DNA of 32,000 nt, taken from contig JANWVF010000033.1 in assembly GCA_025056965.1 (NCBI GenBank), positions 3,750 to 35,749 of the forward strand, given 5' to 3'. Source of the DNA: Thermoflexales bacterium. Lineage in GTDB: Bacteria > Chloroflexota > Anaerolineae > J036 > Brachytrichaceae. The notes under the pieces are model-generated. The model made no database searches and was not told the origin of the DNA. It saw only the letters and a program-made list of their open reading frames with translations. The position numbers and the translations under genes are program-made. The stretch's first letter is position 1. Every line of letters starts with the position of its first letter. Positions 2,422 through 6,987 of this stretch are shown here, in pieces.

Positions 2422-3195
2422 GTGAGTGACGAGCCGCGCGCCATGCTCATCAGCCTGCTCCTCTTCCTGATCGCCTTCGGCGCGGTGCTGGTGCTGGAAC
2501 GGTTCGTGCATCGTCGCCTGCAAGAGGTCTTCCTGCTGTTGACCGGCCACGTCGAGGCAGCGACGTTGCTCTATTCGCTGGTGTTGCTGCCGGGGGTGGC
2601 GCTGCACGAGGTGAGTCACGCGGCGATGGCGGCAGCGCTAGGGGTGCGGGTGCGGCGTTTGTCGCTGCGGCCAGAGCGCCAGCGCAACGGCGTAGTGCGA
2701 TTGGGCTACGTCGAGGTGCTGCGCAGCGACGCCCTGCGCACCAGCCTGATCGGTGCGGCGCCGCTGTTGGCTGGCCTGGCGGCGCTGCTCTTGATCGGCG
2801 CGCTGGTGTTCGACCTCGCTTCGATGCAGTCGGCGCTGGTCAGCGGCAGCGCGCAGGCTGCGCTCGACTACCTGCTCGCCTTGCCCACGGCTACCGATTC
2901 GTGGCTGTGGATTTACGTAGTCTTCGCCATCGCGAATAGCATGATGCCGTCTGCGTCGGACACGCAGTCGTGGCCGCCGGTGATCGGGCTGATGGTCGTC
3001 CTGGCGGCGGCGCTCTTGCTCGCCGGGGGCGCCGACCTGGTCACGGCTATCGCGCCGTTCGTCCGAGCCGCGGTGCGCTGGTTGACGGCCGTATTTGCCC
3101 TCACCGCCTTCATTGACGTTGCGGCGATCGTCATCCTCACGCTGGCTGCTTGGGCCATCGGTCTGTTCACCGGCCGGCGCGTGGAGTTCAAATAA
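2422..3195 (+). CDS. Polytopic membrane protein with HExxH motif (putative intramembrane zinc metalloprotease-like)
   Basis: 257 aa with a GTG start. Several hydrophobic helices, and HEVSH embedded at a helix end (LLPGVALHEVSHAAMAAALG), as in M50/DUF3267-like zincins. No other family-specific motif recognised. Confidence 0.55.
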   Translation: MSDEPRAMLISLLLFLIAFGAVLVLERFVHRRLQEVFLLLTGHVEAATLLYSLVLLPGVALHEVSHAAMAAALGVRVRRLSLRPERQRNGVVRLGYVEVLRSDALRTSLIGAAPLLAGLAALLLIGALVFDLASMQSALVSGSAQAALDYLLALPTATDSWLWIYVVFAIANSMMPSASDTQSWPPVIGLMVVLAAALLLAGGADLVTAIAPFVRAAVRWLTAVFALTAFIDVAAIVILTLAAWAIGLFTGRRVEFK

Positions 3196-4364: not shown

Positions 4365-4904
4365 TCAGCGGTCAGGCTCTGATGCTTTGGCGGCGGGTGC
4401 GTCCTCTTGTGCGCTCGGTCCGGCCGGAGCAACTACGTTTGCCGCTGCAGCGGCAATACCTTCCTGTTGGACGATCACGGTCACGACCGGCGCGGCCTCT
4501 GCGCTCAGGCGCACCGGCACGCTGTAGGTGCCGATCTCGCGGATCGGCTCGCGCAACGCGATCTTGCGCTTGTCGAACGTGCTGCCCAGGCGCTTGCCGA
4601 TAGCGTCGGCGATTTGCGCCGATGTGATCGAACCGTAGAGTTTGCCCTTCTCGCCGGTGCGGACGTTGAAAGTGAGCGTCATGCCGGCGAGCAATTGGGC
4701 CAGCGCCTCGATGTCGGCCTTTTCGCGCGCGCGCTTCTCGATGGCCGCCTGTTTGATGCGCTCGGCCCGCTTGACCGCGGACGGCGTCGCAAGCACGGCG
4801 AGGCCGCGCGGCAACAGGTAGTTTCGGCCGTAGCCGTCGGCAACGGTTTTCACCTCGCCGGCTAAGCCGAGGTTATACACATCTTGCAAAAGTAAGACTT
4901 TCAT
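4365..4904 (-). CDS. rplI: 50S ribosomal protein bL9
   Basis: 179 aa. MKVLLLQDV...GEVKTVADGYGRNYLLPRGLA is the canonical bL9 N-terminal domain. About 40 aa of Ala/Pro-rich C-terminal extension. Confidence 0.93.
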   Translation of the reverse strand: MKVLLLQDVYNLGLAGEVKTVADGYGRNYLLPRGLAVLATPSAVKRAERIKQAAIEKRAREKADIEALAQLLAGMTLTFNVRTGEKGKLYGSITSAQIADAIGKRLGSTFDKRKIALREPIREIGTYSVPVRLSAEAAPVVTVIVQQEGIAAAAANVVAPAGPSAQEDAPAAKASEPDR

Positions 4905-4955
4905 CGCGTCTCCGTGTCGTCTGCTGAGTGATCTCCCCAGTGAGTCGCGGGCGCG

Positions 4956-4961
4956 ATTATA
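4956..4961 (-). promoter_or_regulatory. Candidate -10 box (TATAAT) of the rplI promoter
   Basis: The minus strand reads CAGCTATAATCGCG about 50 nt upstream of the rplI ATG. Only a weak -35 (TCACCC) lies at 17-bp spacing, overlapping the left target-site duplication. Confidence 0.35.
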
Positions 4962-4981
4962 GCTGTTTTTGGCGCTTGGGG

Positions 4982-4989
4982 TGACTAAG
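4982..4989. repeat. Left copy of the target-site duplication TGACTAAG
   Basis: Identical octamer in direct orientation at 6382-6389, immediately outside both inverted-repeat ends. The next base, G, also matches, so the duplication is 8 or 9 bp. Confidence 0.7.
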
Positions 4990-5051
4990 GGGAGTGCCTA
5001 AATCCAAATATGTGCCTAGTCCCGCAGGTAGCTCGGATAACTCGGATGCGC
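4990..5051. repeat. Left terminal inverted repeat
   Basis: GGGAGTGCCTAAATCCAAATA... versus the reverse complement of the right end, GGGAATGCCTAAATCCAAGTA... (19/21 outermost, 52/62 overall). Weaker homology continues to about 5111. Confidence 0.8.
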
Positions 5052-5169
5052 TTAGTTGAGGCGCTGCCGTCGGTTCCAGCAGCGCAACCGCTCGCGGCAA
5101 CGCTTCCACACCGGTGGACCGTCAAGCACTCGGGAAGAGCGAGGACTGGATTCGCTAGCGCTACATTCT

Positions 5170-5697
5170 TTAATCGCCTAGCAACTGCCTAAGCAGCCTG
5201 CCTTGCTCTGCAAGGAGCGCCTGCTGTTCTTGAATCAGTACCTGCTGCAGCCTGGCGAGCCGGTCATAGCTCTGCAAGATTAGCTGGTATTCCCTCAGCA
5301 GCGCTTCAGCCGCCCGTTGTTGCTGCTGCTGCAGACGCCGCTGCACCAACGCAGGACGATTGAGTTGTAGACGGCTGATGGTGAACGCTCCGGTTGGGGT
5401 CAGCGGATACAGCAGACCGTCTTCTCCTTCGAGGAAGTGATGCCCGGCGAGCTCGGCGCGTGGGTTCCATAGATGGGGGTCATTAGGGCTGATAGGAGCA
5501 TAGTCGCCCTTGTAACGATTGCAACATGAGCAGGAGTAGACCAAGTTTTCTGGATCGTCTGTCCCGCCCTTGCTTTGCGGAACGAAGTGGTCAATCGTGA
5601 GGTTTCCACCTGCTTCGAGTTCGCTGACACCACAATACTCACACCGAAAGGCGGCGCGACGGCGAACAAACTCTCGCTGCGATGCTGTCAACGCCAT
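5170..5697 (-). CDS. HNH (His-Me finger) endonuclease with C-terminal coiled coil
   Basis: 175 aa. CEYC...DHFVPQSKGG...ENLVYSCSCCNRYKG gives the HNH/HNN core with two CxxC zinc knuckles. The C-terminal ~60 aa is a Gln/Leu-rich heptad region (LQQVLIQEQQALLAEQGRLLRQLL). Confidence 0.88.
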   Translation of the reverse strand: MALTASQREFVRRRAAFRCEYCGVSELEAGGNLTIDHFVPQSKGGTDDPENLVYSCSCCNRYKGDYAPISPNDPHLWNPRAELAGHHFLEGEDGLLYPLTPTGAFTISRLQLNRPALVQRRLQQQQQRAAEALLREYQLILQSYDRLARLQQVLIQEQQALLAEQGRLLRQLLGD

Positions 5698-5736
5698 GCA
5701 CGTTCAGAGGCTGGATAGGCCCAGCCCCGGTGAACT

Positions 5737-6063
5737 TCATGCAGTTTGCTGCTGAGCAATGCGTTTGGCGAGTTGCGCACGCAAGTGCGCGTTCTCCTGC
5801 CGCAGCGCTGCGTTCTCTGCCTCTAGCCGCTCAATCGTTGTCAGCAGCTCCGCCAGCTGCTTCAAAGTCCGGCGCACTTGGTCCTGCAACGCGACGATGT
5901 CGGGCAGGGGGCTCAAATTCAGCGCATGGAGCTCCTCTTGTTGCTCCTGCACATACCATGCTTGTAGGGCTGCTTGCTCTTCTGGTGTCAGACTCTCGCC
6001 GCGCGTAAAACGGTCGTGAAGTTCTAATCCGCTCTGCGTCACTTCCCCCGAACTCCTTCTCAT
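5737..6063 (-). CDS. Small coiled-coil (leucine-zipper-like) protein, function unknown
   Basis: 108 aa. The C-terminal half has Leu at heptad spacing (IERLEAENAALRQENAHLRAQL). It is co-oriented with the HNH gene and ends 39 bp before it. An alternative GTG start at 6042 follows an AAGGAG motif. Confidence 0.7.
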   Translation of the reverse strand: MRRSSGEVTQSGLELHDRFTRGESLTPEEQAALQAWYVQEQQEELHALNLSPLPDIVALQDQVRRTLKQLAELLTTIERLEAENAALRQENAHLRAQLAKRIAQQQTA

Positions 6064-6319
6064 CTTAATGCTACCATGCCTTCACCCCGCAGGAAGTGAA
6101 CAAATCCAACATGACCAAAGCTTCCGACGCAGCGGGCAGCATCGAGTTGCGCCGGGCAAGTCGCAGCCCTGTTCGGTTGAGGCAGGTCTCGCCGAGTTGC
6201 AACACGATCTGGCACGCTTAGCCCGACGGACGCGGTGCCTTTCGCGGTGTGTGGAAGCGTTGCGGCGGTCGGTTGCGTCCTTTGTGCCATGCTGGAATCA
6301 GCAGCAGCTGTTAAAGCGT

Positions 6320-6381
6320 GCGCATCTGGGTTATGCGAGCTATCCGCGGGACTACGCAGGTACTTGGATTTAGGCATTCCC
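6320..6381. repeat. Right terminal inverted repeat
   Basis: Reverse complement matches 4990-5051 at 52/62 positions. Extended homology with one 11-12-nt indel reaches about 6249, including the shared 15-mer GCAACGCTTCCACAC (5097-5111; reverse complement at 6249-6263). Confidence 0.8.
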
Positions 6382-6389
6382 TGACTAAG
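6382..6389. repeat. Right copy of the target-site duplication TGACTAAG
   Basis: Direct repeat of 4982-4989, abutting the right inverted-repeat end. Confidence 0.7.
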
Positions 6390-6390
6390 G

Positions 6391-6428
6391 CGCACGCGCC
6401 TGCCTCACAGACGAGGCAGGCACGTGCG
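6391..6428 (-). terminator. Strong hairpin downstream of the redoxin gene (possible terminator lacking a U tract)
   Basis: 9-bp stem 6398-6406 / 6413-6421 plus a 6-bp outer stem 6391-6396 / 6423-6428, with one internal mismatch and a 6-nt loop. It begins 23 nt after the redoxin stop. No T/U run on either strand. Confidence 0.45.
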
Positions 6429-6450
6429 AGTGAATTCCACGAGCCGAACC

Positions 6451-6987
6451 TTAGGGCAGTTGCTCGAGTGAGACTTTGCAGTTCCGTCCACCGGCGATAG
6501 ATCGTCCGAGGCGGGCGAGATTCGTTTGCGGTGACCAGCCGTAGATTTCACGACTCACCGTCCCTTGCGGCGAGATCAGCACCGTCTGAGGCACGCCTTC
6601 GACGCGATATAGATTGGCGATGGCTGCTTCGCGATCCATGATGGTCGAGAAGCTAATGCCGTGTCGCGCCATAAACTCGCGCACTGCCTCCTCTGAGTCG
6701 TCATACAAGTTCACACCGATGAAGACTACGCCCCGCTTGCGCAGCTGCTTGTGCGCTGACACAATCGCTGGCGTTTGGCGCTCACAGTATGGGCACCAGC
6801 TGGCGAAGAAGTAAAGCACAACCCCGCAACCCTTCAAGTTGCTGAGTTGGACGGCTCGCCCCTGCAAGTCCACCGATTGAAAGTCCGCTGCTGGGCTTTG
6901 AGCCTCGCCAGGCCGAGCGGCAAATGCTATGGAGATGATGGTTAAGAGCGAAAGGACTAGAGAACGGGTTTTGGTTGCGACTGACAT
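6451..6987 (-). CDS. Secreted TlpA/ResA-like thiol-disulfide oxidoreductase (redoxin)
   Basis: Thioredoxin-fold WCPYC active site, plus a signal-like N-terminus (MSVATKTRSLVLSLLTIISIAFAARPGEA) when started at ATG 6987, which follows AGGAGG. The track ORF extends to 7014. AT-richer than its neighbours. Confidence 0.85.
   Translation of the reverse strand: MSVATKTRSLVLSLLTIISIAFAARPGEAQSPAADFQSVDLQGRAVQLSNLKGCGVVLYFFASWCPYCERQTPAIVSAHKQLRKRGVVFIGVNLYDDSEEAVREFMARHGISFSTIMDREAAIANLYRVEGVPQTVLISPQGTVSREIYGWSPQTNLARLGRSIAGGRNCKVSLEQLP

Follow-up and report, generated by a model that had tools for sequence, protein, structure and literature searches.

Mobile insertion cassettes (MICs), of which MIC231 of Bacillus cereus is an example, are transposase-less elements that derive from insertion sequences (ISs) and carry passenger genes, and MITEs (miniature inverted-repeat transposable elements) are roughly <0.5 kb long and have no coding capacity. 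Both are recognized IS derivatives that are activated by a cognate transposase (PMC3129680). Elements of the IS1 family have ends of the form GGnnnTG (PMC10425158 Table 8; PMC6807381) and are flanked by direct repeats of 8-9 bp (PMC10425158 Table 8). Restriction-modification units with long inverted repeats and no transposase have also been described, and for these it was left open whether they move by themselves or are mobilized in trans (PMC2853133). Here, we analyze a 1392-bp unit (positions 4990-6381) in a stretch of 32,000 nt on contig JANWVF010000033.1 of a Thermoflexales bacterium (Chloroflexota), the whole of which is referred to as the window. In this unit, the genes for an HNH nuclease and a small coiled-coil ("zipper") protein lie between two inverted arms. 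We consider it likely that the unit is a non-autonomous IS1-family derivative of the MIC type that is mobilized in trans and carries the HNH/zipper pair as cargo.

Several lines of evidence connect the unit to the IS1 family. First, the ends and the flanking duplication are of the IS1 type. Positions 4990-5051 and the reverse complement of 6320-6381 are identical at 52 of 62 positions in an ungapped alignment, and the octamer TGACTAAG abuts the unit on both sides, at 4982-4989 and 6382-6389. The inverted ends, the octamer and the unit length of 1392 bp had been noticed earlier from the letters alone, and alignment and direct reading confirm all three. If two indels are allowed, the inverted repeat is longer than had been stated and extends over 4990-5111 and 6249-6381. 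The terminal 21-mers, GGGAGTGCCTAAATCCAAATA (4990-5010, plus strand) and GGGAATGCCTAAATCCAAGTA (6361-6381, minus strand), have no other match in the window at ≤3 mismatches, with none expected from 100 shuffles. Because a G comes next on both sides, the direct repeat can be read as 8 bp or, equally, as the 9-mer TGACTAAGG (4982-4990 and 6382-6390). The unit ends read GGGAGTG and GGGAATG (terminal-repeat form GGGA(G/A)TGCCTAAATCCAA) and fit GGnnnTG, and the duplication fits the 8-9 bp of the IS1 family. ISAcma4 from an Acaryochloris plasmid served as a check with a real IS1-family element; its perfect 23-bp repeats begin GGCGTTG, its duplication (AAGAAAAG) measures 8 bp and its transposase stop codon lies 1 nt from the right repeat.

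Second, both arms contain remnants of an IS1-family transposase gene. The plus-strand open reading frame (ORF) at 6068-6373 (101 codons) matched Pfam DDE_Tnp_IS1 only weakly (E 0.06), and a HMMER scan of 1.84 billion representative proteins returned 171 homologs at E ≤1e-3, the best at 5e-19. Among these, the full-length proteins P0151 (249 aa) and P0187 (251 aa) carry Zn_ribbon_InsA and DDE_Tnp_IS1 (PF03400) domains, and the closest proteins, P0271 and P0272 (73-75% identity), have the source name "IS1 family transposase [Thermoflexales bacterium]". In tblastn, residues 52-132 of P0271 aligned with 6128-6370(+) at 75% identity (E 4e-37), and a decayed copy of the last 44 transposase residues, with stop codons and an 8-codon deletion, was found at 5108-5001(-) (E 2e-8). 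The remnant includes the conserved ..SVEA.. block, which aligns to the glutamate region of IS1; its C-terminal end (...PRDYAGTWI) is like that of the reference proteins (...PRDYASIWI), and its stop codon TAG (6371-6373) falls within the terminal repeat. By contrast, residues 1 to ~168 of full-length P0151 and P0187 were unmatched by tblastn anywhere in the window, and 4990-6381 contains no ORF for a complete transposase with InsA zinc ribbon, helix-turn-helix and all three DDE residues. Some two thirds of the gene are gone, among them the parts for the InsA zinc ribbon, for the helix-turn-helix and for the first two of the catalytic aspartates. The transposase is missing upstream of approximately residue 170, and the unit cannot be autonomous. 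The sequence-only reading had held that no internal frame resembles a DDE transposase; this does not stand, as 6128-6370(+) encodes the last 81 residues of one. For a reading made without tools the miss is understandable, since no more than the final third of the gene is left. Assignments to Tn3-type elements, ISL3, IS6, IS66, IS256 and IS1595 were abandoned after the remnant had matched IS1-family transposases.

Judged by these alignments, the "long inverted repeat" consists of two oppositely oriented copies of one segment, namely the 3'-terminal part of an IS1-family transposase gene together with the right inverted repeat. In common with IS1 and ISAcma4, the unit has the GGnnnTG termini, a duplication of 8-9 bp, the C-terminal region of DDE_Tnp_IS1 and a transposase ORF whose end lies at or in the right repeat. 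It differs from IS1 in that the left end is replaced by an inverted copy of the right end and in that it measures 1392 bp with two foreign genes, compared to a typical 740-1180 bp. Most of the 171 homologs of the remnant are themselves short ORFs or fusions to unrelated domains such as trypsin and thioredoxin (e.g., P0177 and P0233), which suggests a wide distribution of decayed right-end stumps from this IS1 subgroup.

Third, a further copy with a different flanking repeat, for which the sequence-only reading had advised a search, exists. Locus L022, on a contig of a metagenome-assembled genome (MAG) labelled Methylacidiphilales, contains the whole unit at 5166-6551 with 94% identity over 1388 bp, and the two arms of this copy agree with those of the window unit in length and in indels. 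The copy lies between flanks that bear no relation to those in the window (31-44% identity) and has an 8/9-bp direct repeat of its own, TGATAAAGG on one side and TG-TAAAGG on the other. The G+C content of the unit is 56% between flanks of 37-46% in L022 and 58% in the window with its 65.5%; therefore, the unit is native to neither host and has bridged a wide taxonomic gap. Because the already-deleted unit occurs at two unrelated sites with their own repeats, the deletions preceded at least one insertion of the whole unit. On the evidence of the two nucleotide sequences, the deleted unit has moved as a whole. The HNH gene of L022 is dead, with a frameshift and the substitutions C19Y, H37P, C59P and K63N, and its substitutions are even across codon positions (7, 9 and 6). 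The zipper ORF is intact, with 2, 3 and 7 substitutions at the three positions. A 1406-bp contig (L002, Logan SRR15826902) was rejected as an independent copy, as it represents the same locus in another sample. That contig starts inside the right arm at a point equivalent to window position ~6290, a break to be expected if that community contains repeats of related IS1 sequences.

The unit has the features of a MIC, i.e., IS-type ends with a flanking duplication, no functional transposase and passenger genes. It resembles described MICs in its IS-type terminal inverted repeats, short target duplication, unrelated passenger genes and presumed mobilization in trans, and differs from them in its IS1 origin, in that both ends are right ends with transposase codons and in its cargo of a nuclease and a coiled-coil protein. 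At 1392 bp and with two intact conserved genes, it is not a MITE. As in a Tn9-type composite (IS1-cargo-IS1), cargo lies between IS1-family ends, the whole unit moves and there is a single target duplication; the difference is that the IS copies of the window unit are stumps of 122 bp and 254 bp. Because the flanking IS copies are reduced to stumps, the unit cannot supply its own transposase. Both ends are IS1 right ends that face outwards with the passenger operon between them, and we suggest that a full-length IS1-family element in the same cell would supply the transposase. This transposase would bind the two right-end terminal repeats, and the staggered cut of the target on insertion would generate the 8-9-bp duplication, while the HNH/zipper pair would have no catalytic role in the transposition step. 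The unit may have originated from a Tn9-like composite in which both IS copies suffered internal deletions, or the cassette may have entered a miniature element of IS1 origin. The IS1 arms, the IS1-type ends and duplication and the L022 copy all support the proposal, already made in the sequence-only reading, of a cargo-carrying non-autonomous element mobilized in trans.

Several observations weigh against trans-mobilization of an IS1 derivative. That two right-type ends are active as a pair is an assumption. No full-length IS1 copy with matching terminal repeats was read at the DNA level, and the nearest transposases, besides their limited identity to the remnant, are themselves short ORFs (132 and 165 aa). 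The target 9-mers at the two sites, TGACTAAGG and TGATAAAGG (L022 flanks ~5150-5165 and 6552-6562), share 7 of 9 bases, for which our own arithmetic gives a chance of ~1e-3. Target-site similarity of this degree is more than expected for IS1, and a target preference of unexplained cause may lie behind it. Only two copies were found across the scans. In species-representative genomes, GGGARTGCCTAAATCCAA gave 18 matches, all due to chance (downstream identity ~25%), and the source genome is evidently outside this collection; the sub-terminal block TAGTCCYGCRGRTAGCTCGSATAAC had zero matches in viral contigs and Joint Genome Institute (JGI) metagenome contigs. Finally, an empty site (...TTGGGGTGACTAAGGCGCACG...) was not found in the nearest relatives. 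In relatives with an 89-90% identical L9, the genes downstream of rplI are kept and those upstream are different, and homology ends at a distance of 8-10 bp to the duplication. Owing to this loss of synteny upstream of rplI, the nearest relatives offer no empty site that can be used.

Candidate sources of the transposase come from the same lineage. The window is 99.9% identical to the Thermoflexales MAG GCA_033577815.1, with 18 single-nucleotide polymorphisms in 15.7 kb, none of them in the unit, and therefore comes from a sister assembly of that MAG. The accession of an identical HNH protein, MCS7055126.1, lies between those of two IS1 transposases, MCS7054809.1 and MCS7055341.1, all from Thermoflexales, and we infer that the three come from one genome, probably that of the window. 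Exact look-ups of these two transposases and of the L9 and redoxin proteins encoded next to the unit returned no record. The closest related cassette (L023/L024; HNH protein P0001, 73% identity, also Thermoflexales) has a different decayed IS1-family copy, convergent with the HNH gene. In L023, this copy (6532-6954, minus strand) is inserted in the 3' end of the HNH gene (6001-6543), such that the IS end ...CTAGCCACTCCC is joined to the HNH codons ...KQL and the last residues, REWLDES, are read from the IS end ...GGGAGTGGCTAGACGAAAG. The terminus of this copy, GGGAGTGGCTAGA, resembles the window terminus GGGAGTGCCTAAA. Among the other 80 cassette loci, IS1 remnants are present in L023/L024 only. 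The insertion in L023/L024 illustrates a way in which the cassette could come to be flanked by IS1 copies, and IS1 elements and the HNH/zipper cassette meet repeatedly in the Thermoflexales lineage.

The cassette itself is widespread, and its footprint at other loci differs from that in the window. The HNH protein belongs to a tight family of ~177 aa with at least 159 homologs; 418 metagenome loci encode a relative, and the family is absent from the viral contigs searched. At every sufficiently long locus, a homologous coiled-coil gene (~103 aa) immediately precedes the HNH gene, and the two usually overlap by 4 bp. Across loci, no methyltransferase, integrase, ATPase or other recurrent neighbor family surrounds the pair. 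We surveyed the footprint at 48 distinct HNH/zipper loci with ≥300 bp on both sides. None of these ~48 loci has terminal inverted repeats comparable to those of the window unit, and an inverted match of ≥30 nt was present in a single one, the repeat-rich L043 (48 nt). Direct repeats of 30-241 nt (83-100% identical) bracket the pair in 11 of the 48 loci, compared to 0 of 40 shifted control segments from the same loci. The repeats are unrelated between loci, except for L090 and L093, which share a target gene, and in most loci the repeat is present twice only. The L070 repeat corresponds to the final 197 bp of an ABC-ATPase gene, with the intact gene upstream and the duplicated fragment beginning at the HNH stop codon. 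In L093, it is the 3' end of a gene whose product, from its C-terminus, looks DinB-like to us by eye, and in L101 it is an internal segment of an opposite-strand gene that we take from its motifs to encode a methyltransferase (MGMT). The inserts between the duplications measure 899-1270 bp. We read these direct repeats as candidate target duplications, and they hint at a mobility of the cassette's own. In nuclease gene units, a direct repeat of >30 bp of host sequence to either side, with no mobility gene in the unit, defines this type of insertion (Nobusato, Furuta and Kobayashi). A footprint of this kind has been named "insertion with long target duplication" by Kobayashi and colleagues for restriction-modification genes (PMC2853133). 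The absence from viral contigs, the mutually unrelated contexts and the duplications at 11 of 48 loci set the cassette apart from homing endonuclease genes, which reside in phages, introns or inteins and enter a conserved cognate target that is not duplicated. At L027 (5157-5634, 6538-6816 and 8505-8900), and likewise at L025-L031, ~182-bp multi-hairpin units that resemble repetitive extragenic palindromes or bacterial interspersed mosaic elements fill the intergenic spaces around the cassette; in L025-L031, the same units enclose an adjacent gene for an IS200-type Y1 transposase (169 aa) as well as an unannotated gene of 348 aa.

These footprints bear on how the unit arose. One scenario, compatible with IS1-driven movement in trans and in our view possible rather than probable, is that the cassette inserted itself, in a nuclease-associated manner, into an IS1-derived MITE and was then carried onwards. 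At 1019 bp, the segment between the arms (5109-6127) falls within the sizes of the inserts that are bracketed by direct duplications at other loci, and the frequency of C-terminal IS1 remnants as short ORFs or fusions suggests many decayed or miniature derivatives. Against this scenario, no direct duplication flanks the cassette inside the arms, and a cargo-free miniature element was not found in the scans of species-representative genomes, viral contigs and JGI contigs.

A more radical scenario, in which the HNH nuclease and its coiled-coil partner constitute the transposition machinery, recognize the inverted repeats and make the 8-9-bp staggered cut as a new class of transposase, is in our assessment very unlikely. 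The lack of an intact transposase in the unit would fit such a scheme, as would the apparent mobility of the cassette in other genomes and the similar 9-mers at the two insertion sites, which a sequence-specific nuclease might give. The same question was reported as open for the restriction-modification units that lack a transposase and have long inverted repeats with an 8-bp duplication (PMC2853133). These units (Furuta, Abe and Kobayashi 2010, PMC2853133) are similar to the window unit in containing a nuclease gene between imperfect long inverted repeats (65 bp in Xanthomonas oryzae) with an 8-bp duplication. They differ in that the repeats of the window unit are traced to a named IS family and in that its cargo lacks a methyltransferase, and the tracing of the repeats to IS1 answers the question of self- versus trans-mobility for the window unit. 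The repeats are not specific to the cassette; an IS1 transposase gene contributed both of their parts, the 3' coding sequence and the right repeat. Moreover, the ~48 other loci lack comparable ends and, where a footprint is seen, it consists of long direct duplications. The L022 copy retains its ends despite a dead HNH gene, showing no co-conservation of nuclease and ends, although this is neutral with respect to past activity. The suggestion in the sequence-only reading that the pair might itself act on these repeats is, thus, not upheld. Least credible of all is an immobile fossil, in which two independent IS1 insertions beside a resident HNH/zipper cassette decayed in place and the octamer is a coincidence: IS1-family copies do land by this cassette in Thermoflexales, as in L023 at the 3' end of the HNH gene, but the probability that one 8-mer should abut both ends by coincidence is ~1 in 65,000 by our own arithmetic. 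This explanation is also contradicted by L022, where the unit recurs with identical arm lengths and indels in unrelated DNA of different G+C content and has its own direct repeat.

With movement of the unit attributed to an IS1-family transposase, the HNH/zipper pair can be considered as cargo. Pfam searches of the internal ORFs bear out the HNH nuclease of the sequence-only reading (4.7e-12), whereas the zipper protein gave weak coiled-coil matches only and the search also revealed the weak DDE_Tnp_IS1 match described above. An AlphaFold (AF2) model of the HNH protein (predicted local distance difference test, pLDDT, 94.6) has an HNH core, a small subdomain and a single 60-residue C-terminal helix. 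The best Foldseek matches are PtuB of the Septu and retron Ec78/Eco7 effector complexes, with template modeling (TM) scores of 0.50-0.60 over 130-157 columns (8eea_G, 9u9y_H and 9nnb_J), followed by McrA, Cap5 and the HNH domain of Cas9. In sequence profiles, the best PADLOC match is also PtuB (8.9e-15), NCBIfam points to the HNH region of IscB/Cas9, and PDB profiles gave generic HNH matches only. The likeness to Septu and retron Ec78 lies in this best structural and PADLOC match; the difference is that the partner of the HNH protein is a 108-aa coiled-coil protein rather than the PtuA ATPase, and no ATPase or reverse transcriptase is nearby. We suggest that the pair is a defense-type or addiction-type nuclease with a coiled-coil partner, and such a module may help the cassette to persist. 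Tentatively, and with doubt, we extend this to a picture in which the pair is a self-propagating, recombinase-free cassette that spreads by insertion with long target duplication, with 30-240 bp of host DNA copied to either side. Capture between IS1 ends in Thermoflexales would have added a second, transposase-driven route that has already led across phyla. In this picture, the coiled-coil protein would be a protective or regulatory partner of a toxic nuclease: 64 of 65 loci have an intact zipper ORF, and the HNH gene is interrupted in 4 distinct loci.

The features of the unit and its surroundings are listed in Table 1. The unit sits between the hairpin on the redoxin side and the promoter region of rplI. 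This promoter region (window 4905-4989; ...AAACAG(C/T)TATAATC...) is conserved in relatives (L115:3370-3500; L116:3370-3500), and the unit lies ~20 bp upstream of the conserved rplI TATAAT, at the expected position of the -35 box. Upstream of the promoter region, gene order differs in every relative examined. A consensus promoter scan of 4850-6500 found no promoter. Rfam gave no match in the region at E ≤1 and none in the window at gathering scores, and there was no tRNA either; a reading of the long inverted repeat as an RNA element was dropped after these null scans. At 6090-6109, a short distance upstream of the zipper start codon, there is a weak third match to the terminal repeat (GGAAGTGAACAAATCCAA, 14/18), which may have arisen by chance or be what is left of a further IS end.

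Table 1. Coordinates of the unit, its flanks and the direct-repeat loci (window positions unless a locus is named)
Feature	Position	Strand	Basis
Target-site duplication, left copy TGACTAAG (TGACTAAGG as 9 bp, 4982-4990)	4982-4989		Direct reading; octamer recurs at 6382-6389; L022 repeat similar, not identical
Left arm: decayed inverted IS1-family right end; terminal repeat 4990-5010 and last 44 transposase codons (5108-5001)	4990-5111	-	tblastn with P0272 residues 122-165, E 2e-8; pairs with 6249-6381
Spacer of 58 bp, left arm to HNH stop codon	5112-5169		94.8% identity in L022
Cargo gene 2: 175-aa HNH nuclease (HNH core, LWNPR subdomain, 60-residue C-terminal helix)	5170-5697	-	Pfam HNH, 4.7e-12
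Cargo gene 1: 108-aa coiled-coil (zipper) protein, upstream partner of the HNH gene	5737-6063	-	Weak coiled-coil Pfam matches; linked homologous ORFs
Leader of 64 bp, zipper start codon to transposase remnant	6064-6127		Lowest conservation between the two copies, 82.8%
IS1-family DDE transposase remnant: last 81 codons and TAG stop (6371-6373)	6128-6373	+	75% identity to P0271 residues 52-132, E 4e-37
Right arm, pairing with left arm; terminal repeat 6361-6381 holds the transposase stop codon	6249-6381	+	Repeat alignment
Target-site duplication, right copy TGACTAAG (9 bp as 6382-6390)	6382-6389		Direct reading
Host hairpin outside the unit, 16-bp stem, 6-nt loop, 94% complementary, 3' of redoxin gene, adjoins insertion point	6391-6428	-	Inverted-pair search
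Direct-repeat loci	L070:406-602, 1502-1698; L043:1466-1697, 2883-3112; L101:3295-3515, 4636-4856		Repeat search
Further direct-repeat loci	L027, L058, L063, L076, L089, L090, L093, L099		Repeat search

With the arms traced to IS1, an apparent "transposon without a transposase" becomes a documented decayed IS1-family element that likely acts as a vehicle, and this vehicle would have moved a nuclease cassette between a 65% G+C Chloroflexota genome and a low-G+C genome binned as Verrucomicrobiota. The case also provides a caution: long inverted repeats can be remnants of transposase coding sequence, and a remote-homology search of such "non-coding" arms can settle the matter. The cargo is the more interesting by-product, i.e., a strictly linked pair of a PtuB-like HNH protein and a coiled-coil protein that occurs at hundreds of environmental loci and lies significantly often between long direct repeats of host sequence. 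If this footprint reflects an insertion mechanism of the cassette's own, it would extend a little-understood mode of mobility of restriction-modification genes to a minimal two-gene nuclease module.

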